Assembly (NCBI GenBank): GCA_902776605.1
Contig: CACYQQ010000002.1
Coordinates: 1-53,636, forward strand
DNA: 53,636 nt
From: an uncultured Bacteroidales bacterium
GTDB lineage: Bacteria > Bacteroidota > Bacteroidia > Bacteroidales > UBA3663
Direction: 5' to 3'
This document shows, in pieces, positions 1,800-45,871 of the stretch. The stretch's first letter is position 1. Each line of letters opens with the position of its first letter. A program made the position numbers and the translations under genes. The notes under the pieces are model-generated. The model had not been told where the DNA came from. It saw only the letters and a program-made list of their open reading frames with translations, and ran no database searches.

Positions 1800-3701
1800 A
1801 TGTTTATGTCAAAAGTAAGACAAATATCGTTATTTTCAAGCCTAATGACAGCCCTCACATCTGTGTATTTTGTGGGGTGCGCAAGCATTGGTTCACCGGG
1901 TGGAGGCCTCTACGACGAGACCCCTCCCGTGCTGCGTAATTCGGAGCCCGGCGAAGGGGCTACCCGAGTGAAAAAACAGAAGATTACGATGCACTTTGAC
2001 GAGAACATCAAGTTGAACAATGCCCTCGAAAAACTGACGGTTTCGCCTCCGCAGGAGAAGTCGCCCATCATCCTGAGCAATGCCAAGACGCTCACCATCG
2101 AACTGCAAGATTCCCTCCGCCCCAACACCACCTACAGCATCGACCTGGGCGATGCCGTGCAGGACAACAACGAGGGCAATCCGATGGAGAGTCTCTCGCT
2201 GCTTTTCTCGACGGGCGATGTAATTGATTCCCTGCAAATTAGCGGCTATCTGCTGAACGCCGAAGACCTGGAACCCATCACGGGTGCCTATGTCGGCATC
2301 TACACCGAAGAGGGTAACTCGTTGGGCGACAGCATCTTCCTGCAACGTCCCATGGAGCGTGCCGGCAAGACCGATGCCTTCGGCGCCTTCCACATACTGG
2401 GCTGTGCGCCAGGCCGTTACCGTCTCTATGCCTTGACCGACGAGAACACCAATTTCCGCTACGACCTCACGTCGGAGAATATCGCTTTTCTGGACAGTCT
2501 CATCTCCCCTTCGGCCGACTCGATGCAGGTATTGATGTTGGCGTTCAACGAAGGCAAAGTGAACCGCTATTTGGACAATTGCGTGCGCCGCGATTCGGTG
2601 CACATCGACATCCGTTTTTCGGCTCGGATGGACTCGCTGCCACAACTCTCTTTCATCGATTCGGAGGGTCTCTCCGTGCAGGCCGACAGTCTGCTCATAC
2701 CCGAAATCAATCCCACCCAAGACACGCTGACTTACTGGATTCGCGACAGTCTGTACTACAAGAGCGACACCTTGCTCCTGTCGCTCACCTATATGTTTAC
2801 CGACACGACGGGGTTCGACATCCCGCGCACCGACACCATCCCCCTCTACAAACCTATCCAACGTGCCTCAGCGGCCAAGAAGGATAACAAAAAAGAGGAA
2901 AAGAAAGGTGGCTTGAAACGCCTGTTGCGCAAGAAGGAAGAGAACAAGAACGACTCGATTGAGGCACCCTCCGTGACCTACATCACCTTGCACCAGATTT
3001 CGGGCCAGTCCTTGAACATCGGCGACAAACCCCGCTTCGAAGTATCCTCACCCCTGGATTCCATCCACTTGGAGGGTCTGCACCTGCAATTCAAACAGGA
3101 CACCGTCTGGAAAGACTTGAACCTGGAATGGGTGCCCGACTCGCTGCATCCGCGCCGATACACCTTGTTGGCGCGTCCTCGTTATACGCCTGGTACCGCC
3201 TACCAACTGGTGGTCGATTCGGCTGCGATGTTCGACATCTACGGCAATCCCAACGACCGTACCGTCCTGGGATTCAAGGAGAAAACCAACGAGGAGTATG
3301 CTCACTTGCTCTTCACCATCGAGGGCATCGACGAACCCGCCTTCGTCGAACTCCTCAGCGCCAAGGATAAACCCGTACAGAGTGCTCCCGTCAAAGAGCA
3401 CCAAGCCAAATTCGTACACGTCGTGCCAGGCAAATACTTTGCCCGCCTCGTGATTGACAAGAACCAGAACGGTCAGTTCGATGCCGGTAACCTCTGGGAA
3501 CACCGTCATGCCGAACCGGTCTATTACCTCAACGCTCCTCTCACCCTACGCGCCAACTGGACCATCCAACAGAACTGGAACCCCACCGAACTGCCGCTCC
3601 TGAAGCAGAAGCCCGAAGAGGTTAAAGTCAACAAACCCAAGGAGAAACGCGAAAAGGTGAGCAAGAACGAGGAATACCTGCGCAAGCATCCGAAAAAGTG
3701 A
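1800..3701 (+). CDS. Lipoprotein with Ig-like (Big_5/SbsA-type) domain, function unknown
   Basis: Long ORF. I prefer the in-frame ATG at 1800 (MFMSKVRQISLFSSLMTALTSVYFVGC, a lipobox) over the TTG at 1680 used by the track. The C-terminus is K/E-rich. The family assignment is by recollection only. Confidence 0.7.
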   Translation: MFMSKVRQISLFSSLMTALTSVYFVGCASIGSPGGGLYDETPPVLRNSEPGEGATRVKKQKITMHFDENIKLNNALEKLTVSPPQEKSPIILSNAKTLTIELQDSLRPNTTYSIDLGDAVQDNNEGNPMESLSLLFSTGDVIDSLQISGYLLNAEDLEPITGAYVGIYTEEGNSLGDSIFLQRPMERAGKTDAFGAFHILGCAPGRYRLYALTDENTNFRYDLTSENIAFLDSLISPSADSMQVLMLAFNEGKVNRYLDNCVRRDSVHIDIRFSARMDSLPQLSFIDSEGLSVQADSLLIPEINPTQDTLTYWIRDSLYYKSDTLLLSLTYMFTDTTGFDIPRTDTIPLYKPIQRASAAKKDNKKEEKKGGLKRLLRKKEENKNDSIEAPSVTYITLHQISGQSLNIGDKPRFEVSSPLDSIHLEGLHLQFKQDTVWKDLNLEWVPDSLHPRRYTLLARPRYTPGTAYQLVVDSAAMFDIYGNPNDRTVLGFKEKTNEEYAHLLFTIEGIDEPAFVELLSAKDKPVQSAPVKEHQAKFVHVVPGKYFARLVIDKNQNGQFDAGNLWEHRHAEPVYYLNAPLTLRANWTIQQNWNPTELPLLKQKPEEVKVNKPKEKREKVSKNEEYLRKHPKK

Positions 3702-3854: not shown

Positions 3855-4679
3855 ATGAACAAGATATTTAGTATCGCCATAGGCCTCTTTTTGTTGACAA
3901 GCAACGCCACAGACGTGCTTGCCATCGAACCAGCCAAGAGTGCCAAAAAGCTGGAATCGCTGACCTACAATGCCTATTGGCACTGGGGCTTCATCTGGAA
4001 ACTGGCAGGTAGCGGCACACTCAACCTCTGGGAGGAACAGGTGAACGACAACACCACCCGCTTCCATGGTCAGTTGTGTGGCCGTTCCAGAAGCATCGTC
4101 GAATCCATCATGAAGGTGCGCGACACCCTGGACTGCTACTACACGCCGGAACTTATTCCCCTGGAATACTGCAAGAAAACCAACGAGGGCAATTACCACG
4201 CCATCGAACGCAACTACTATCACAGCTTCGCCGACGGCACCTTGCAACGCGATGCCTATCGCTTGAATCGCGAGGACGTTGACAGCACCTCCATCGACGT
4301 CTATCGCTGGCGCATCAAGAAAGGCGACGACCGCAAGAAACTCAAGAATGACGGCGTCGGCTTCGACATGCTCTCCATCTTCTACGAACTCCGCAACATC
4401 GACTACTCCAAGTTGCGTCCGGGTCAGAAATTGGAATATCACATCACCTCGGGCATCAAGAACCGCGGTCTGCATGTCAAGTACAAAGGACGGGAGACCT
4501 GCACCCTCAAGAACGGTCGAAAATATCCCGCCTATCTGGTCGAACTCACTTTCTCGACCAAGGACAGCGACAGCACTCCCCTCCAAGCCTGGCTCTCGAC
4601 CGACCCCGACCATCGCCCTCTCAGTGTAGTCATCAACCTGAAGCGCATCGGCGCCGTGCAGGGCGAGATTGTGGAGTAG
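3855..4679 (+). CDS. DUF3108-like secreted protein
   Basis: Signal peptide MNKIFSIAIGLFLLTSNATDVLA. The YNAYWHWGFIWKLAGSGTL start is typical of DUF3108 as I recall it. Confidence 0.65.
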   Translation: MNKIFSIAIGLFLLTSNATDVLAIEPAKSAKKLESLTYNAYWHWGFIWKLAGSGTLNLWEEQVNDNTTRFHGQLCGRSRSIVESIMKVRDTLDCYYTPELIPLEYCKKTNEGNYHAIERNYYHSFADGTLQRDAYRLNREDVDSTSIDVYRWRIKKGDDRKKLKNDGVGFDMLSIFYELRNIDYSKLRPGQKLEYHITSGIKNRGLHVKYKGRETCTLKNGRKYPAYLVELTFSTKDSDSTPLQAWLSTDPDHRPLSVVINLKRIGAVQGEIVE

Positions 4680-4701
4680 AAAACCCCTCACCCCATATTT
4701 T

Positions 4702-4813
4702 CCATAGTCACTATAGTTCCTATATTTCCTATAGTATCTATAGTTTCTATAGTCACTATCACCGTTAACCCCTAACCGTTAACCCTTAAACGTTAACCCC
4801 TAACCGTTAACCA
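4702..4813. repeat. Composite stutter array: CTATAGTNN nonamers (4702-4760) followed by TAACCNN heptads (4761-4813)
   Basis: ccatagtcactatagttcctatatttcctatagtatctatagtttctatagtcactatc, then accgttaacccctaaccgttaacccttaaacgttaacccctaaccgttaacc. It fills most of the spacer between the DUF3108 gene and yigZ. Confidence 0.85.
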
Positions 4814-4825
4814 TTTAAAAAGTCC

Positions 4826-5422
4826 TTGGACACCTACCTCACCATAGCTGCACCCTCCGAAGGACTGTACAAGGAGAAAATGAGCAAGTTTCTGGCCTTT
4901 GCCGAACCTTGCCGCACCACCGAACAGGCCAAGGAGATTGTGACGCGCTACAAGAAAGAGTATTTCGATGCGCGCCACGTCTGTTGGGCGTATATGATTG
5001 GCGCCGAACGAACCGACTTCCGCAGCAACGACGACGGTGAACCATCGGGCACAGCGGGCAAACCTATCTTAGGGCAAATCAACAGCTTCAATCTCACCGA
5101 CTTATGCGTCATCGTGGTCCGTTACTTCGGTGGCATCAAGTTAGGCACCAGCGGACTCATCGAGGCCTACCGCACGGCGGCTCAGGAGGCTCTCAATGCC
5201 GCCACCATTGAGGAGAAAATCATCGAAGAAACCATTACCGTCCACTTCCAATACCCCCTGATGGGCGACGTCATGCGCATTGTCAAAGAGGAGAATGCCA
5301 CCGTCCTGAGTCAAGACTTTGTCGAGGACTGCCGCCTCACCCTCAGCCTCCGCAAGAACCAGATGCCGCGTATGCGCTCCCGCTTTGAAAACACGTTCGG
5401 CGTCAGCATATTGGATAAATGA
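4826..5422 (+). CDS. yigZ: YigZ / IMPACT-family (UPF0029) protein
   Basis: TTG start at 4826. The N-terminus DTYLTIAAPSEGLYKEKMSKFLAFA, then DARHVCWAYMIG and RYFGGIKLGTSGL, match the family, so the residues before the first ATG look genuine. Confidence 0.8.
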   Translation: MDTYLTIAAPSEGLYKEKMSKFLAFAEPCRTTEQAKEIVTRYKKEYFDARHVCWAYMIGAERTDFRSNDDGEPSGTAGKPILGQINSFNLTDLCVIVVRYFGGIKLGTSGLIEAYRTAAQEALNAATIEEKIIEETITVHFQYPLMGDVMRIVKEENATVLSQDFVEDCRLTLSLRKNQMPRMRSRFENTFGVSILDK

Positions 5423-5539
5423 AAGACAAACTTTAGTTTAAGCTAAAGGGCGCAGTTGCGCCGCTAAGATAATTCCAGTTAACTCCTTCAAACGAGCAAG
5501 TAATACATCAACCTTATAAACAACAAATTATCTATCACA

Positions 5540-6721
5540 ATGAAAAATTTTATCCTATCCTTCTTCCTCCTTGCCAGCAGCGCAGTCTGCATGGCACAAA
5601 TCAATTTGCGTGAGGGCATCGTCATTACCCTACAAGGAGACACTTTGCATGGCTCTATTGACTACCGCACCGACCAATTGAACGCGGAGCAATGCTTGTT
5701 CTTCCCCGACAGGAAAAATGAGTCAGTCACTTACAAACCTGGAGACATTGCAGGCTACCGTTTCTTGGACAATGGCCGCTATTATGTCAGCAGAGTGGTC
5801 GAAATCGAAGAAAACAAACAAAAGAACGTCTTCCTGGAATATGTGGTACGCGGAAATCTCAGCCTCTACTATTTGGATCACCCCGCCATAGTAGATAAAC
5901 TATACTTCTTGGAGGACGAAACTGGCAAAATGGTTAAGTTTAGATACTTAGGGATGGATCAAAAGCATTCCCTCCGTAACAAAAATTTGACCGATGCCTT
6001 TATGATGACCCGAAAGAGCGAGAAGGCTCAACAGATATTGTGGAGAAAAGAACCGAACAGAATTAACACCACAAAGGCCGTACTCACCTACAACAAAGAG
6101 GTGTGTCCCGATGGACAATGTGAAGTCATGGAGTACAAGAAGAAGAGGAAACCCTCCGAGGACAACATGTTCAAATTCGGCTTCAAGGCTGGTTATGCTA
6201 CTTACAACATGAAAGTAGGACGCGATTATGTTGTTGACAAATATAACGCTGGGGCACATTTTGCCGACTTTAAATTGCCTTACCTTTCAGTGGGTTGCGT
6301 CTATTACATCTCCCGACTTGCCAAAAACTTCTTTGGTGAGGCATTCCTCGCCTACTACCATTTTTCAGGCACGTACATTTACGATGATGGGTACACAAAA
6401 CCAAATACTATCTTCAAATATAAAGAAACCGACTTGACAGGCAAAATCGGCTTCGGCTATCATTGGAAGAACATCAACTATGTTCAACCACGTGTACGAG
6501 GAGGCGCTGCACTCTCATTTTTATGGGGTGATTGTGTCAAAGAAAATATGTCATTTTGTGATAATATAAAATGTACGCTTCATCCTGGCTATTATGCAGG
6601 AGCAGGAGTCTTGTTCCCTATCGGGAAGCATGCCATCACGCTGGACGTAGATTATAATTTATCCGACTATTACAAATCAAACATCAAACGAACCATTTTC
6701 GCCATTGGCTATCAATTCTAA
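5540..6721 (+). CDS. Putative outer-membrane protein, tandem paralog 1 (conserved N-domain, beta-barrel-like C-terminus ending IGYQF)
   Basis: Signal peptide MKNFILSFFLLASSAVCMAQ, 393 aa, C-terminal aromatic residue. It is a paralog of the next gene. Confidence 0.7.
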   Translation: MKNFILSFFLLASSAVCMAQINLREGIVITLQGDTLHGSIDYRTDQLNAEQCLFFPDRKNESVTYKPGDIAGYRFLDNGRYYVSRVVEIEENKQKNVFLEYVVRGNLSLYYLDHPAIVDKLYFLEDETGKMVKFRYLGMDQKHSLRNKNLTDAFMMTRKSEKAQQILWRKEPNRINTTKAVLTYNKEVCPDGQCEVMEYKKKRKPSEDNMFKFGFKAGYATYNMKVGRDYVVDKYNAGAHFADFKLPYLSVGCVYYISRLAKNFFGEAFLAYYHFSGTYIYDDGYTKPNTIFKYKETDLTGKIGFGYHWKNINYVQPRVRGGAALSFLWGDCVKENMSFCDNIKCTLHPGYYAGAGVLFPIGKHAITLDVDYNLSDYYKSNIKRTIFAIGYQF

Positions 6722-10526: not shown

Positions 10527-10660
10527 TAAGGTTATAAGGTTGTAAGGTCGCTTCGCTGGTGAGGTTATAAGGTCGTTATGCTGACGAAGTTTCCTTGTCG
10601 AGGTTATAGGGTCAATAAAGGAACCTTAAAACCTAAAAACCTCATAACCTAAAAACCTCA
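10527..10660. repeat. Inverted arrays of AAGGTTAT / ATAACCT octamer words filling the exbD-tonB spacer
   Basis: aaggttataaggttgtaaggtcgcttcgctggtgaggttataaggtc ... then ggaaccttaaaacctaaaaacctcataacctaaaaacctca. The core ACCTCACCAGCGAAGCGACCTTAYAACCTT recurs, inverted, at 34802-34832. Confidence 0.8.
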
Positions 10661-11551
10661 ATGACAATTATGGAACAAGATAAGAAAAGCCAAATATGGG
10701 GCATTGTTGTCACCCTGCTCTTCCACGTCCTGTTGGTCGTGCTGCTTTGGTTGGCACATTTCAGTCCCTTTGCCCACGAGGAGGAGAGTGGTATCCTGGT
10801 CATGACCGGCATTGATGCCGAGGGCAGCGGCGAGGAACTGATGTCGTCCGACGTGACCGACCTGGAGCCGGAACCGCAGCCCGAAGAGGTACCTCCGACG
10901 CCACCGGCACCGCAACCTACTCCAGCGCCACAACCCACTACCGAACCGCTGTTGGCTCAGGACGATGCTGAGGCACCTTATGTGGCTGAACAGAAAGCCG
11001 AGGAACTCAAGAAGCAGAAAGAGGAGGAGGCTCGTCTGTTGGCCGAAGCCGAGGCACGTCGGCAAGAGGAACTGCGCCGCCAACAGGAAGAGGAGGCTCG
11101 CCGCCGTGCCGCCGAAGAGGCTGCTCGCAAGAAAGCGGCCGAGGAGGCGGCCAAGCGTCAGGCTATCAACAACCAGATGGCGGGTCTCTTCAACAACAAA
11201 GGCACGGGCAACAACGCTGGCACGCAAGGCGATGCACATGGCAACAGCATGACGGGTGCCACCTCGGGCAGTGCCGGTTACGGTGAGTTCGACCTGGGTG
11301 GTCGTGGCATGGTCGGTGCTTTGCCCCGTCCTGCTTTCAACCTCAACGTGAGCGGTAAGGTCGTGGTTCTCATCACAGTCGATGCTGCCGGCAACGTCAA
11401 GTCCACCGCCATCGGCAAGGGCACTACCATCTCCTCGCAGGAGATCCGAAATGCTGCCAAGGAGGCTGCTATGAAGGCCAAATTCAAGTCCGTCAGCGGC
11501 ACCAGCATTACCGCCGGCACCATCACATATTACTTTGACAGCAACAACTAA
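10661..11551 (+). CDS. tonB: TonB-family energy transducer
   Basis: N-terminal TM, P/E-rich then E/A/R/K-rich linker, and a C-terminal TonB-like domain (VVVLITVDAAGNV...AKFK). Confidence 0.8.
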   Translation: MTIMEQDKKSQIWGIVVTLLFHVLLVVLLWLAHFSPFAHEEESGILVMTGIDAEGSGEELMSSDVTDLEPEPQPEEVPPTPPAPQPTPAPQPTTEPLLAQDDAEAPYVAEQKAEELKKQKEEEARLLAEAEARRQEELRRQQEEEARRRAAEEAARKKAAEEAAKRQAINNQMAGLFNNKGTGNNAGTQGDAHGNSMTGATSGSAGYGEFDLGGRGMVGALPRPAFNLNVSGKVVVLITVDAAGNVKSTAIGKGTTISSQEIRNAAKEAAMKAKFKSVSGTSITAGTITYYFDSNN

Positions 11552-11585
11552 AGAAATTAAAAATGAAAAATAAAGAGTGAAAAAT

Positions 11586-11740
11586 AAATTGAAAGTTGAA
11601 AATTGAAAAACCTCGGAGTATTCCGAGTACTCCGAGTATTCAGATTACTCCGATTACTCCGATGGCTCCCGAGCTCTTTAGTGCCGAAGGCCATTAGCGT
11701 GAACGAAGTGAACTTTTAGCGGCTCGAAGAGCCCATTAGC
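11586..11740 (+). repeat. Mosaic intergenic element (~150 bp), copy 1
   Basis: Modules in order: AAATTGAAAGTTGAAAA, a CTCCGAGTAYT stutter, GATTACTCCGATGGCTCC, then CTCTTTAG(C/T)GCC..GGC(C/T)ATTAGCG..CTTTTAGCGGCTCG.AGAGCC.ATTAG. The same order is found at 19286-19419. Confidence 0.85.
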
Positions 11741-29429: not shown

Positions 29430-30014
29430 TTACTTTTTCACTTTACAATCCACTTCGAATGGGATGATAGCGTTCAACGCCTTTTGTCGGAAGTCGGCCA
29501 ACTTATCATGCATGAAGGGCATGATGTCGTCTCCATAGACGCGGTGGGTGTAGAAGATTAGTTGCAAGGCAGGGGAACCATTCACCTTTATCATTCGGTA
29601 TTTATGGACATCAAATTCAATCATTTCAAGGGAGTCGTTCTTGCTCAGATAACACATGAAATCAATCATCCATTCCGACTTATCCGGACTGTTGCTGATG
29701 GCCCAATTCCAGACATCCTTATTCTTACGACCCTGCAATTCCTCCTCCTTGGCCTTCACTGCCATTTCGGGGTTTACGATGGGAGGAACATTCGTAATGA
29801 CAGAGACTGTAAACATATCGTCATACTTCTCGTAGGTCTGTCCCTTTGGAAAATACTCCTGCAAATAGACCGTCGAGCTGTTTTGGCTAAATCCCAAATG
29901 ATACTGGATGCCGTTGAATTTCAAATCACTCACACCGAGGTAGTCCTGCACCTTTTGTGCCATCAACGTCGTCGATGCCAAAACCAACAGCAAGGATAAG
30001 ATAAGTTTTTTCAT
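29430..30014 (-). CDS. Secreted hypothetical protein (194 aa), likely co-transcribed with the DUF2339-type gene
   Basis: Signal peptide MKKLILSLLLVLASTTLMAQ; 35-nt gap to the next gene. Confidence 0.6.
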   Translation of the reverse strand: MKKLILSLLLVLASTTLMAQKVQDYLGVSDLKFNGIQYHLGFSQNSSTVYLQEYFPKGQTYEKYDDMFTVSVITNVPPIVNPEMAVKAKEEELQGRKNKDVWNWAISNSPDKSEWMIDFMCYLSKNDSLEMIEFDVHKYRMIKVNGSPALQLIFYTHRVYGDDIMPFMHDKLADFRQKALNAIIPFEVDCKVKK

Positions 30015-30042
30015 CGCGTCTATAAGATTAAATTTATGTCGT

Positions 30043-30135
30043 TTACGGTGCTGCCCTTACAGGGCGAACCCTCTCTTGCTCCACGGGACCCCAGGCGCTG
30101 CCTGGGGCTGACCGGTATTGCGCTTTCAGCGCGTC
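30043..30135 (+). repeat. REP-like element A (three hairpins)
   Basis: GCCCTTACAGGGC, CCCCAGGCGCTGCCTGGGG and GCGCTTTCAGCGC. It is homologous to elements B and C. Confidence 0.85.
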
Positions 30136-30340
30136 ATCAAACAGAGAACACTGTATCTTCAAAACCGCGCAGACAATAGCAAAGGATGTTTCGTTCGGTC
30201 CGATAGGATAGCTTCGAACTATACCAGCATCAATTATTCCTTAATGCTTGTGTTTTCGCTCTGATTAATAGAATAGTTCTTGAACCAACCTCGAAAGTTT
30301 TACTTGAACATTTCCTTATGATAATTATGTCTTGCATAGA

Positions 30341-30434
30341 GGAACGCCACGAAGTGGCAATACCGATCAGCCCAGGGCAACGCCCTGGGTTTACGTGGGC
30401 AAGAAAGGAATGCGCCCTGTAAGGGCAACACCGT
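30341..30434 (-). repeat. REP-like element B (inverted), abutting the RAYT 3' end
   Basis: The reverse complement carries GCCCTTACAGGGC, CCCAGGGCGTTGCCCTGGG and GCCACTTCGTGGC. Confidence 0.85.
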
Positions 30435-30440
30435 CAATAA

Positions 30441-30896
30441 TCAATCTGTCCATAGATATTTCTCGTCATATTCAATGTTATACAATTGAAGGAACTGGAT
30501 ATACTCATCCCGAAAGGATTGCTTCTTATGGTGTTCCGCTTGGTTCTGCAAGTAACGAATCACCGTATTGACTTGTGATTGCCCAATGGAAAATGCCCCA
30601 TATCCACCTTGCCACGCAAAGTCTTCATAATAAGGCGACAAGGTCTTTATCCAACGACTACTATTCCGCTTCATCTCTTCCACCACATGAGCCGTATTTT
30701 CTGTCTTGGACAAGGTAATGAGCACATGAACATGGTCTTCCGTCCCTCCCACCTGCAAAACTTGGCAACCTGCAATATTCACCATCTTTCCGATGTAACG
30801 GTGCAAGGAATCAATATCTTCAGGTCTGATTATACGGCACGACGTTTTTAGGTGAAATACGATGTGCAAGTATATTTTTGTAAGCGATTGTGACAT
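30441..30896 (-). mobile_element. REP-associated tyrosine transposase (RAYT) / IS200-like Y1 transposase
   Basis: 151 aa: MSQSLTKIYLHIVFHLK, HUH motif DHVHVLITL, WQGGYGAFS, catalytic-Tyr region VIRYLQNQAEHH. It is flanked by inverted REP elements B and C. Confidence 0.85.
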
Positions 30897-30917
30897 TTAA
30901 TCATTTTATTTATAGGT

Positions 30918-31011
30918 TCTTACGGTGCTGCCCTTACAGGGCGAATGTCCTCTATCTACTTGAGACCCAGGGCGTTGCCCTGGGCTATTCGATGTTGCGC
31001 TTTCAGCGCGT
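30918..31011 (+). repeat. REP-like element C, abutting the RAYT 5' end
   Basis: Hairpins at 30930-30942, 30966-30984 and 30997-31009. Confidence 0.85.
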
Positions 31012-31030
31012 TTACCGAATCCACACGATT

Positions 31031-31720
31031 TTACTTTTCAAACTTGCGTTGTAGCACCTTCAAGGGCCAAGTCGCGTCAAACCAGACAGTTTCGGCGTTG
31101 TAATACTGACTTGTTTCGCCCAACGTAATGACGTCACAGGTGCCCACCAATTTTTGACCCGTGAACTCCCAGATCTCGAGAAAATACCTCATGAAATTAT
31201 ACTCATCAGATACCTCGGTAACATAAAACGGATAATCTTCACTGCCATTACCCGTTGTAGCGATGGTATTGTAAACACGTTGTGCACGGAGGTAGTAGAT
31301 CTCGGCATTTGATTTGGTGTACTTCATGCTACCCGCTTTGACCATCTTCAAGATGCTCCGTTCTGCCAACGAGAGTGCCTTTGTATTGAGCGGATTCTCT
31401 TTCAGGAGGGACTTGGCACATTCAAGCGCCTCTTCATATTTCCCTTGGCCATAGTATTCGTCACCATCCATCGCGGTTTTGCTTGTACCCAAACAAGGAC
31501 AGAGAATCCCCATGCCATAAATTGCCAAACGACGTTCTTCCCAAGTCAGTGAACGATCCAAGGTATCGGCCGAGAGACGTATGGCCAAAGCGCGCACGCT
31601 ATCTGATTGTGCTTTAGCTATTTTCTCCATATTGTCCCAGTTGATAGGGAATAAGTCTCTCTCTGCATGACATACTCCCATCATGCACATTAAAAGCAAT
31701 GTAAACAAAAGTTTTTTCAT
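31031..31720 (-). CDS. DUF4919-like secreted protein, paralog B
   Basis: Has a signal peptide and shares C-terminal motifs with 25752..26423. Confidence 0.6.
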   Translation of the reverse strand: MKKLLFTLLLMCMMGVCHAERDLFPINWDNMEKIAKAQSDSVRALAIRLSADTLDRSLTWEERRLAIYGMGILCPCLGTSKTAMDGDEYYGQGKYEEALECAKSLLKENPLNTKALSLAERSILKMVKAGSMKYTKSNAEIYYLRAQRVYNTIATTGNGSEDYPFYVTEVSDEYNFMRYFLEIWEFTGQKLVGTCDVITLGETSQYYNAETVWFDATWPLKVLQRKFEK

Positions 31721-31895
31721 TGTGTTTATTAGTTTGATTTTTGTTCTGTATTTAGTTTATTGTCTTTCAAGGACTTCGAACTATTCAAAATTACCGAATA
31801 ATTGCCCACCGAATGTCTCTATTTAAGGAAATATGACAAAAACGGCCATGCAAATATACATATAAAAACTGAAATGCCCGCACCTTTTGTCCATT

Positions 31896-32580: not shown

Positions 32581-32692
32581 GAAAAAGTCGAAACAGGTCT
32601 GTCGCCCCTTCGGGGCTTAACTGTAACCGTTTGATTTTCAAGAAGGGGTTTCACCCCTCCCTGTGGTCTTTAGGTCCCTTCGGGACTTTTTC
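32581..32692. ncRNA. Candidate structured RNA or leader: a 9-bp closing helix enclosing three GC-rich hairpins
   Basis: GAAAAAGTC (32581-32589) pairs with GACTTTTTC (32684-32692). Inside are GCCCC-TTC-GGGGC, AGGGG-TTTCA-CCCCT and (AG)GTCCC-TTC-GGGAC(TT). The strand is unresolved. Confidence 0.3.
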
Positions 32693-33132
32693 AAGCGGGC
32701 TCAATAGTTAATACACTTACTAAATGCAGCCGTTGGCGAAATACTGCATGGCAAAGAACGAAAACGATAACCAAAACGAAAAAGAAACTTCGTCAACGAA
32801 AACGAAACTTCGTACGAAAACCAAAACGATAACGAAAACAAAAAAACTCCCTTGCACTCTTTTCAACTCCGTGAGAGGTTATAATACTCCGTCAATTAAA
32901 CTTAATTTGAACTCAATTCCGTGTGTCGCGAGAGCCATGCAACTCAATTGGTAACTCAATTGAACTCAATTTGAAAGATGCGAAAACTAAAAACCTTCGC
33001 GAAAACGAAAAAACTTCCGCGTCAACTATAACTAACTTTGTACGAAAACGAAAACTAAAACGAAAAACCTTCGCGTCAACTATAACAACCGAATTCTCTA
33101 ATTCTCATTCATTCATCTTATCGTCTCCCCAA

Positions 33133-33161
33133 GAAAATTCTCTAATTCTCTAATTCTTGAG
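33133..33161 (-). repeat. Inverted copy of the CTCAAGAATTAGAGAATTAGAGAATTTTC module
   Basis: gaaaattctctaattctctaattcttgag is the exact reverse complement of the start of the 221-bp repeat unit. It is followed by a 3 x ~16-bp stutter, TCTTGAGTT(T)AATCTTT, that runs into the comM stop. Confidence 0.8.
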
Positions 33162-33196
33162 TTTAATCTTTTCTTGAGTTAATCTTTTCTTGAGTT

Positions 33197-34649
33197 TTAT
33201 CCTTGACCCCACGAGTGCTTGTCCAGGTTGCGGTACGAGATGGCCTCGGCAATGTGGGTTGAGGAGATTGACTCACACCCCTCATAGTCGGCAATGGTAC
33301 GTGCCACGCGCAAGATGCGGTCGTAGGCACGGGCCGAGGGCATTGAGTTGAGCCGCCGCCGACAGTTGAGCAAAACGCTCCTCCTGAATGCGTCGTGCCT
33401 TGAGTACACGTTCACGAATTGAGGCCGACGACTCCGAGACATGATGACGAGACATCTCCTCGAACGACAGCGGACGAATCTCAATCTGCATGTCGATGCG
33501 GTCGAGCAACGGACCCGAAATACGTCCCAAGTACTTACGCACCTGCGATTCGGTGCAGGTACACTCGTGCGTAGGGTGGTTGTAGTAGCCGCATGGGCAA
33601 GGGTTCATCGATGCCACCAACATCACGCTGGAGGGGTACGTCACCGTGTTCTTGGCACGGGCGATGGTGATGACACGGTCCTCGAGGGGTTGGCGCAACA
33701 CCTCCAACACCTCACGTCGGAACTCTGGCAGTTCATCCAGATAGAGCACTCCGTTGTGCGCCAACGAGACCTCACCCGGCAGCGGGTTCGTGCCGCCGCC
33801 AATCAGTGCCACGCTCGATATAGTGTGGTGCGGCGAACGGAAAGGACGTTGCGTGATGAGACCCGTCTCGGCACGCAGACCCGCCACGCTGTGTATCTTG
33901 GTGGTTTCCAACGCCTCGCCCAACGAGAGCGGCGGCAGGATACTGGGCAGGCACTTTGCCATCATACTCTTGCCCGCACCCGGAGGACCCACCATGATGA
34001 GGTTATGACCACCCGCAGCGGCGATGGCGAAAGCACGTTTCTCGACCTCCTGCCCCTTGACGTCGGCAAAGTCGGCAGCATAGGTGCGCTCCGCCTTGGC
34101 AAACATCTCGCGCGTGTTGACCTCCAACCGTTCCAACTCTCCGCGTCCACTCAGGAACTCGACGATCTGATGCAGGTCGTCGGCAATGAGCACCTCCAAC
34201 TGGTTGACCACCGCCGCCTCACGGGCATTCTCGCGCGGCACGACGATACCCTTCAACCCCATCTTACGGGCCAAGATGGCAAACGGCAGACAACCGCTCA
34301 CGGGTTTGACCTTGCCGTCCAACGACAGTTCGCCCACCAGCATGTAGTCGCCCAACTTGGCAGCAGGAATCAACTCGCCCGCCGCCAGCACCGCCACGGC
34401 AATAGGCACGTCGTACATCGACCCCTCCTTGCGCACGTCTGCAGGCGCCAGGTTGATAGTGATCTGTTTGCGCGGCACACGCATCCCGACCTCACGGAGC
34501 GCACTCTCCATGCGGTCTCGACTCTCCTTGACTGCCGCATCGGGCAACCCGATGATGATGATTCGACAACCCGGCGAGATAGCCGTTTCGCAATAAACTG
34601 GTGTAGCATCAATGCCTTGCAAGGCAGCAGATAAGGTACGGACAACCAT
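33197..34649 (-). pseudogene. comM: comM/yifB (Mg-chelatase-like AAA+ competence protein) with an internal deletion plus frameshift near the 3' end
   Basis: Frame A (33282..34649) matches ComM up to ...[17 protein letters not shown]. Frame B (33197..33484) resumes at [28 protein letters not shown]...ISYRNLD. The total is 1453 nt (not a multiple of 3), or ~484 codons against ~510 for the family as I recall it. Confidence 0.75.
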
Positions 34650-45789: not shown

Positions 45790-45871
45790 TACGGATAGTG
45801 GGACTCGAACCCACACGCCTCACGGCACCAGATCCTAAGTCTGGCTTGTCTACCAATTTCAACATATCCGC
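45790..45871 (-). tRNA. tRNA-Leu (anticodon UAG), 82 nt, long variable arm, CCA not encoded
   Basis: The reverse complement is GCGGATATGTTGAAATTGGTAGACAAGCCAGACTTAGGATCTGGTGCCGTGAGGCGTGTGGGTTCGAGTCCCACTATCCGTA. Features: 7-bp acceptor stem (G1-U72 wobble), anticodon stem CCAGA/TCTGG with loop CTTAGGA, T-arm GTGGG-TTCGAGT-CCCAC. The listed ORF 45665..45898 is spurious. Confidence 0.9.

Follow-up and report, generated by a model that had tools for sequence, protein, structure and literature searches.

In the comparison of Y1 (HUH, single-tyrosine) transposases by Quentin et al. (2018, BMC Genomics 19:475, PMC6006769), subclass 1.2 is placed near IS200, without the properties of an insertion sequence (IS), and is entered as 'REP: no' for repetitive extragenic palindromes (REPs). 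Its members are about 148 aa long, carry a specific C-terminal domain of about 30 aa, are found in Bacteroidetes and Cyanobacteria, and occur at 1.7 copies per genome with 36% mutual identity, versus 4.8 copies and 99% for true IS200 (PMC6006769). That study looked for REPs with a GTAG or GTGG tag and with stems no shorter than 7 bp (PMC6006769), so that three-hairpin repeats with 5-bp stems would be missed. Here we describe a repeat of this kind together with a Y1 transposase gene, both located in a 53,636-nucleotide stretch of DNA from an uncultured Bacteroidales bacterium (assembly GCA_902776605.1, contig CACYQQ010000002.1, positions 1 to 53,636), referred to below as the window. The gene lies between two inverted copies of the element. 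We read the locus, with a probability of roughly 65%, as a REPtron-like system in which an IS200-type (class-1) Y1 enzyme is paired with a composite three-hairpin element that is moved in trans.

The TnpA proteins of IS608 and ISDra2 bind subterminal hairpins as dimers, with a guide tetranucleotide on the 5' side setting where cleavage occurs (PMC6006769). On the side of the repeat, part of the element (hairpins 2 and 3) matches an existing Rfam family, Acido-Lenti-1 (RF01687). The seed of this family holds 89 sequences, mostly from Lentisphaera araneosa contigs and often in arrays, with other members from Koribacter versatilis, Rhodopirellula and metagenomes (Weinberg et al. 2010 supplement, PMC2864571). 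The sole association noted there is 'sometimes near group II introns' (Weinberg et al. 2010, PMC2864571), and a 2026 Tannerella preprint reads Acido-Lenti-1 matches as regulatory noncoding RNAs (ncRNAs).

The Y1 protein fits subclass 1.2

The transposase gene (30441..30896, minus strand) encodes 151 aa and contains both motifs that the initial annotation had pointed out, DHVHVL at residues 54-59 and IRYLQNQAEHH at residues 113-123. The match to Pfam Y1_Tnp (PF01797; 80.2 bits against a cutoff of 23, E 1.7e-22) spans profile positions 3-121 of 121. The same annotation had called the protein a RAYT (REP-associated tyrosine transposase), and of this call the Y1 HUH part stands and the RAYT part does not. 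In the hidden Markov model (HMM) check proposed at that time, the NCBIfam model REP_Tyr_transpos (NF047646) was not passed, with 22.1 bits against a cutoff of 80, and transpos_IS200 (NF033573) was passed only marginally, with 56.9 bits against 55. The tyrosine motif reads Y115-LQN-Q119-AE-HH (Y-x3-Q-x2-HH) and not the Y-x3-NP of class 2. An AlphaFold2 model (pLDDT 87) found its top Protein Data Bank (PDB) fold matches in the ISDra2, IS608 and IS200 TnpA proteins (E 5e-8 to 2e-6), with a weaker match to the E. coli RAYT 4er8 (E 3e-5); a PDB search with the sequence gave no match, and only the fold search did.

Within class 1, the motifs of IS200 subclass 1.1, W[TS] and Y[IV]ENQ, are absent, the protein having WQ and YLQNQAEHH in their place. 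The subclass 1.2 motifs DH[IV]H, WQ and Y-x3-Q-x2-HH of the published consensus are all present. Across 35 homologs of 60-87% identity, H55, H57, W95-Q96, Y115, Q119, H122-H123 and a KRNSSRW block are invariant, and the tail (residues 120-151) is conserved. More than 2100 database homologs were found, nearly all of them 151 aa long. The protein is an intact and apparently functional HUH/Y1 enzyme, and it fits TnpA_Y1 subclass 1.2 rather than the RAYT family proper. The subclass is large: when relatives are clustered at 50% identity, the matching clusters number 118 at E<=1e-30 and 3751 at E<=1e-10. Among the top 150 representative relatives, about 20 (including P0121-P0129, P0131 and P0136) are about 290 aa long and match in two stretches, as two tandem-fused Y1 domains, an arrangement that would fit an enzyme acting as a dimer.

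Inverted three-hairpin elements enclose the gene

Three element copies of about 95 nt each, with 78% column identity when aligned, lie at the positions initially annotated. Copy A (30043..30135, plus strand) scores 81.4 bits with R1, a covariance model built for the element in this analysis, and has its hairpins at 30053-30065, 30089-30107 and 30120-30132; copy B (30341..30434, minus strand; 94.5 bits) has them at 30414-30426, 30371-30389 and 30346-30358, and copy C (30918..31011, plus strand; 93 bits) at 30930-30942, 30966-30984 and 30997-31009. Copy C is located 5' of the gene, inverted relative to its sense strand and about 25 nt from the ATG, and copy B follows in gene orientation, beginning about 6 nt past the stop codon. 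The gene is thus enclosed by two complete inverted elements, which agrees with the earlier description of the flanks as inverted structured repeats rather than canonical IS200 ends. Copies A and B are convergent and separated by 205 bp (30136-30340). The window contains three occurrences of the hairpin-1 22-mer where none would be expected, and a chance origin of the repeats was ruled out on this count.

A degenerate three-hairpin copy D (32585..32696, plus strand; R1 28 bits, E=5e-6) lies two genes from the Y1 gene and consists of GCCCC-TTC-GGGGC, GGGGT-TTCA-CCCC and GTCCC-TTC-GGGAC; it is present at the same position in L001, a locus whose Y1 protein is 98% identical. Beyond copies A-D, the R1 model found no significant copy in the whole window, nor was a gene-less inverted doublet found there, the A/B pair being convergent with its 205-bp spacing. 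In L001 copies A and B are separated by an unrelated segment of 566 bp (10552-11117) that encodes a 129-aa lipoprotein-like open reading frame (ORF), compared with 205 bp of non-coding DNA in the window. Since this segment is unrelated between strains with 98% identical proteins, the elements bracket a strain-variable cassette.

Across the copies collected, the element is about 100 nt long and runs in a fixed order: a small hairpin, a variable spacer of about 25 nt, a large hairpin, a linker of about 12 nt and a second small hairpin. The first small hairpin has 5 bp, a TWC/TTC loop and a conserved 5' flank, and the second has a 5' flank of the same kind. The large hairpin has 8 bp and the form CCCAGGGC-NNN-GCCCTGGG. 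Between lineages, the flanking sequences 5' of the two small hairpins (1 and 3) switch together, with CGGTRYTG here and AGCTTYTG in most others. Neighbouring units may have one small hairpin in common, as in L005. The large-hairpin loop holds 15-60 extra nt in several copies (L015 10596-10746; L027 10453-10621 and 10623-10753; L141 6299-6421), sometimes forming one more short stem; such copies represent either expanded element variants or nested insertions.

Base pairing is kept by compensatory change

All three copies fold into three hairpins as single-stranded DNA (ssDNA), with z scores from -2.9 to -4.5, copy C having the lowest (-4.5). The pairing-preserving differences reported in the initial annotation were confirmed. 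Hairpin 2 has the stems CCCAGGGC/GCCCTGGG in copies B and C and CCCCAGGC/GCCTGGGG in copy A, with two pairs changed on both sides, and hairpin 3 has GCGCT/AGCGC in A and C and GCCAC/GTGGC in B, with three pairs changed on both sides. All five of these paired differences keep Watson-Crick pairing.

The same pattern extends to distant copies. When 42 diverse copies were aligned with MAFFT, pairing was seen in 96.8% of cells, versus 26-56% with the partners slid, although the former percentage is inflated by viral rows that were picked by the exact hairpin-2 pattern. Compensatory change was seen there in 11 of 18 pairs, and the covariation score was reached by none of 500 shuffles. Because the viral rows had been selected by pattern, the count was repeated on 34 mostly gene-linked copies; this alignment was fitted to the structure model, which inflates its 97.1% of paired cells, and 15 of the 18 pairs showed compensatory change. 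RNAalifold independently returned these three hairpins and, for each of the two small ones, an additional closing T-G pair. The selection on structure proposed for copies A, B and C is therefore real, and it acts on pairing in the element at large.

Gene and element occur together in several phyla

A recurrent layout surrounds most of the homologs whose loci were retrieved, in unrelated genomic contexts: a minus-strand copy ends just before the ATG, a plus-strand copy starts from the stop codon, and more copies often follow beyond. This flanking reaches homologs with identities down to 45%, from Bacteroidales and Cytophagales to Verrucomicrobiota. The closest homologs (98% identity; L001 and L002) share the synteny of the window, and an 87% identical homolog (L003) has an inverted copy upstream while its downstream copies are all on the minus strand. 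At 69% identity (P0019; L005-14), the gene and its window-like flanking elements are found in a type I restriction-modification (R-M) operon, with hsdS on one side and hsdR on the other; the contigs of L005-L009 also encode Rep3_N, ParA-like and VapE-like genes and resemble a plasmid or other mobile element. Homologs of about 65% identity (L015, L021 and L027, from the set L015-28) occupy three other chromosomal contexts and are flanked in the same manner. Window-like flanking was further found around homologs from a Bacteroides clarus-type genome (L157, 47% identity), Persicobacter (L152, 45%), the verrucomicrobial Ereboglobus (L155, 45%) and Luteolibacter soli, also of the Verrucomicrobiota (L165, 59% to the Ereboglobus protein). 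In a planctomycetal Isosphaeraceae homolog (L164) two copies lie downstream and the upstream copy is absent.

Each exact protein was found at a single site across many samples and assemblies. In all four places shown among 225 indexed blocks, the Bacteroides gene comes immediately behind serS and has the same genes downstream, with a different far-upstream sequence in one of the four. The loci L161 and L163, from related species with 87-88% identical ComM, are without the Y1 unit and show no element in 38 kb. Because the region is a variable island of about 8 kb there, they gave no clean boundaries for a site that lacks the complete unit.

Part of the element matches Acido-Lenti-1

Hairpins 2 and 3 of copy C (30966-31010) match Acido-Lenti-1 at 37.9 bits, just above the gathering score of 37. 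Copy B reaches 28.3 bits, copy A gives no match, and most other Bacteroidales copies score beneath the threshold. The two copies adjoining the Isosphaeraceae Y1 gene reach 45.3 and 42.2 bits. The Acido-Lenti-1 seed has an element-like architecture with the 'GGCUA' junction seen in the window elements, and in one Lentisphaera and one Koribacter seed flank a small hairpin about 27 nt upstream completes the same three-hairpin unit.

Among the papers that could be searched, none was found that ties Acido-Lenti-1 to Y1 transposases, and a search for the hairpin sequences returned nothing relevant. The Weinberg supplement has no gene-context table for the family, and none of the named Y1 homolog matches came from Lentisphaera or Koribacter. 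What is new is the systematic cross-phylum link between subclass 1.2 and an Acido-Lenti-1-type three-hairpin repeat.

Element copies without a gene

In line with the initial annotation, gene-less copies exist in several settings elsewhere. With the large-hairpin pattern, 112 loci were recovered from IMG/VR; a full three-hairpin element is present in 66 of them and a Y1 gene in none, and several have two inverted copies placed head to head. A 167-kb replicon of Segatella copri DSM 18205 carries two inverted doublets (95-106 bits) and no Y1 gene. These doublets have arm-specific features, a central spacer and an outer inverted motif in common, which indicates that the doublet was copied as a unit. 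An inverted doublet was also found in a metagenome-assembled genome (MAG) of Thermoguttaceae, and in Luteolibacter soli an inverted element pair lies 7 kb from the Y1 gene. In L027, copies 2.5-3.7 kb from the gene carry the lineage-specific hairpin 3 of the gene-adjacent copies.

When JGI metagenomes were scanned for the variant of the window, which has the 5' flank CGGTGYTG, the scan recovered the window locus and one gene-less singlet locus (L144, L148), together with a doublet in a different organism. Two assemblies contain the singlet, and in one of them the window locus is present too, on another contig. In one assembly 57 extra nt are present at the 3' end of the singlet (L148 ~11568-11625 vs L144 ~2162-2170), bounded by a 9-nt direct repeat AGCGCGTTT that corresponds to the 3' arm of hairpin 3 plus TTT; the indel thus lies exactly at the element edge. 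The lineage motif CGGTGYTGCCCTTACAGGGCG and the hairpin-2/3 lineage motif had no match in viral contigs.

A presence/absence polymorphism was found for another singlet. About 104 nt long, it is present in three related IMG/VR contigs (L029, L101 and L131) and missing from the homologous site in three others (L038, L106 and L129); the flanks are 92-97% identical, and there is no clear target duplication.

Many of the element-bearing IMG/VR contigs are about 100 kb long and come from sample 3300045988. They had no match to known phages except in the element itself. In L033 an inverted doublet (3234-3430) lies about 1.2 kb from a gene for a 428-aa reverse transcriptase (4589-5875; phrog_1423), which echoes the remark of Weinberg et al. 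on Acido-Lenti-1 near group II introns.

Other features of the window

Secreted-protein genes lie on either side of the Y1 unit, an HI_0983-like gene (29430-30014) and a DUF4919 gene (31031-31720). A 50-nt direct repeat with 74% identity (29986-30035 and 31692-31741) spans their start codons and upstream sequence and probably reflects similar signal-peptide and translation-start regions. Farther along, a ComM/YifB Mg-chelatase-like gene is split on the minus strand (33197-34649) into a 455-aa ORF (33282-34649) and an overlapping 95-aa ORF (33197-33484) that holds the C-terminal domain; in a 99% identical relative one uninterrupted protein of 524 aa is encoded, and the split is an apparent frameshift or sequencing error. 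Homologs of this ComM that bear a name are labelled only 'Bacteroidales bacterium', which would leave the 'Prevotella-like' of the initial annotation as a candidate label. The intergenic DNA at 32700-33200 is AT-rich with short imperfect tandem motifs including AACGAAAAC and TTCGCGTCAACTATAAC, and similar AT-rich tandem motifs, GTTGAACGATTAACG and GGTTCTGAG, adjoin the Y1 gene of L021 (9560-9900 and 10550-10720). A tRNA gene was identified at 45790-45871 on the minus strand (Rfam tRNA model, 56.6 bits). The GC-skew profile of the window and a simple promoter/terminator scan were uninformative, the scan output not rising above chance.

Proposed mechanism and alternatives

The singlet has two small hairpins in direct orientation with co-varying 5' flanks, the layout of the IS608/ISDra2 ends, and from this we infer that it is a miniature IS200/IS605-type element with the Y1 protein as its mover and ssDNA as the substrate. 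In single-stranded DNA, such as occurs at replication forks, the hairpins would be extruded on one strand. Probably acting as a dimer in the manner of IS608/ISDra2 TnpA, the enzyme would bind the two small hairpins as left and right ends. Cleavage may then take place nearby via Tyr115 with a metal site of His55, His57 and Gln119, followed by rejoining of the ends. Gene-less singlets and inverted doublets could in this manner be excised and re-inserted in trans. The gene, being located between two whole inverted elements and not inside one, would stay fixed at one site per genome.

Several observations weigh against this proposal. In both sequence and fold the protein is nearer to true IS200 transposases than to RAYTs. 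Few copies of the cognate element were found: outside the locus the window has one weak copy only, the JGI metagenomes gave a single extra locus of the lineage-specific motif, and a scan of GTDB representatives with the narrow lineage motif CGGTGYTGCCCTTACAGGGCG returned one Thermoguttaceae MAG and no Bacteroidales genome. The cognate copy number in the window lineage may be low, perhaps a handful compared with the hundreds typical of REPs. The singlet polymorphism could represent precise deletion rather than insertion, the 38% identical Bernardetia homolog has no detectable element, and the inflated paired percentages of the two alignments also belong on this side. The IMG/VR contigs are putative phages, their PHROGs matches being limited to a reverse transcriptase, a methyltransferase and a single family of unknown function.

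The first rival reading is an autonomous IS200-like IS, in which the 671-bp unit from B through the gene to C (30341-31011) moves as a whole and the gene-less copies are deletion derivatives resembling miniature inverted-repeat transposable elements (MITEs). The unit is IS200-sized, the protein has an IS200/IS605-like fold and marginally passes the NCBIfam IS200 model, and the inverted doublets look like the unit minus its gene. Homologs of 65-70% identity also occur in wholly different contexts, including the plasmid-like contig within the R-M operon. We nevertheless consider this reading unlikely: every exact protein was seen at one site only, subclass 1.2 as a whole shows 1.7 copies per genome and 36% identity against the 4.8 copies and 99% of true IS200 (Quentin 2018), and the protein is strongly conserved over a wide divergence. 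Moreover, IS200/IS605 ends are direct on one strand and not inverted whole elements, and the singlet, with its two like-oriented small hairpins, is itself the indel unit. The single copy, the fixed site and strong purifying selection would agree with a domesticated hairpin-processing enzyme that has another host function, for example in resolving or nicking ssDNA structures at forks or in local recombination, with flanks that are IS relics kept as binding or regulatory sites and with old, immobile dispersed copies. The low copy number of the cognate variant in the window lineage points the same way, and the wholly different A-B segments of 98% identical strains would suggest local recombination at the elements. 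Domestication in this sense has few chances in our estimate, since the homogeneity of lineage-specific hairpin variants within a genome (L027), the copying of doublets as units with arm-specific features and the recent indel polymorphism together argue for ongoing or recent mobility.

It would be highly improbable, finally, that the elements are structured RNAs, such as a small RNA, a cis-acting terminator or an mRNA-stabilising structure, with a regulatory or incidental link to the Y1 gene. RF01687 does reach or exceed its gathering score in the window and beside the Isosphaeraceae gene, covariation fits RNA equally well, the T-G closing pairs of the small hairpins would be G-U in RNA, and the copy directly past the stop codon would be co-transcribed with the gene. 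Against this, both orientations are represented among the copies, which also form inverted doublets and tandem arrays, they are multi-copy within genomes (most of the 89 Weinberg seed sequences are from Lentisphaera araneosa contigs), and they show presence/absence indel behaviour. They are also tied across phyla to an enzyme that processes DNA hairpins, and hairpin 3 lacks a terminator-like T-run, with no terminator signal above chance in the simple scan. By analogy with REPs, the elements may have a secondary effect at the RNA level.

We favour the REPtron-like system moved in trans, which can be extended tentatively and with chances that we put slightly below even. Acido-Lenti-1 would be the visible part of a non-autonomous ssDNA transposon of about 100 nt, with two small hairpins as ends around a large hairpin, moved in trans across at least 4-5 phyla and putative phage contigs by a stationary single-copy subclass 1.2 enzyme. 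If true, a Y1 subclass described without IS properties or REPs would gain a function and cognate substrates, and an unexplained Rfam family would be reclassified as mobile DNA, whose matches are already over-read as regulatory ncRNAs in genome annotation (e.g. the 2026 Tannerella preprint). In Bacteroidales, the order that dominates the gut, it would also add a REP-like system whose enzyme and substrate form a compact pair amenable to assay.

Comparison with known systems

The window protein resembles subclass 1.2 in its motifs, its length of about 150 aa, its conserved C-terminal tail, its low copy number and its Bacteroidetes host. It differs in that a conserved three-hairpin repeat usually flanks the genes described here and in that the protein family extends to Verrucomicrobiota, Planctomycetota and Rhodothermales. 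With Acido-Lenti-1 the element shares the 8-bp hairpin, 'GGCUA', the linker of about 12 nt and a 5-bp hairpin with a YUUCRG-type loop, whereas Rfam files that family as a small RNA of Acidobacteria and Lentisphaerae.

With IS608, ISDra2 and the gene-less palindrome-associated derivatives of the IS200/IS605 family the system shares the TnpA fold and catalytic residues, an indel without target duplication, and a singlet whose two similar small subterminal hairpins are direct and, in the way of a left and a right end, are both preceded by a conserved 5' flank. In contrast to IS200/IS605, the gene lies between two whole inverted elements and not between the hairpins of one element, and neither multiple identical gene copies nor a tnpB were seen.

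The likeness to the RAYT/REP REPtrons (E. coli YafM, PDB 4er8; Pseudomonas groups 2 and 3) consists of a single-copy Y1 gene with inverted structured-repeat flanks. As in RAYT/REPIN systems, there are gene-less singlets and inverted doublets dispersed elsewhere, a doublet copied as a unit, and a lineage-specific repeat variant. However, the window enzyme is of class 1 (IS200-like), has Y-x3-Q and fails the RAYT HMM, and the element has no GTAG/GTGG tag but the 5' flanks CGGTRYTG or AGCTTYTG. It is also a composite three-hairpin repeat of about 100 nt rather than a single palindrome of 20-40 nt, and its copy number in the window lineage looks low. If the extended reading is correct, this would be a second, independent REP/RAYT-like system built on class-1 enzymes, and a living intermediate between IS200 and RAYT/REPIN that bears on the origin of REP/RAYT from IS200-like elements.

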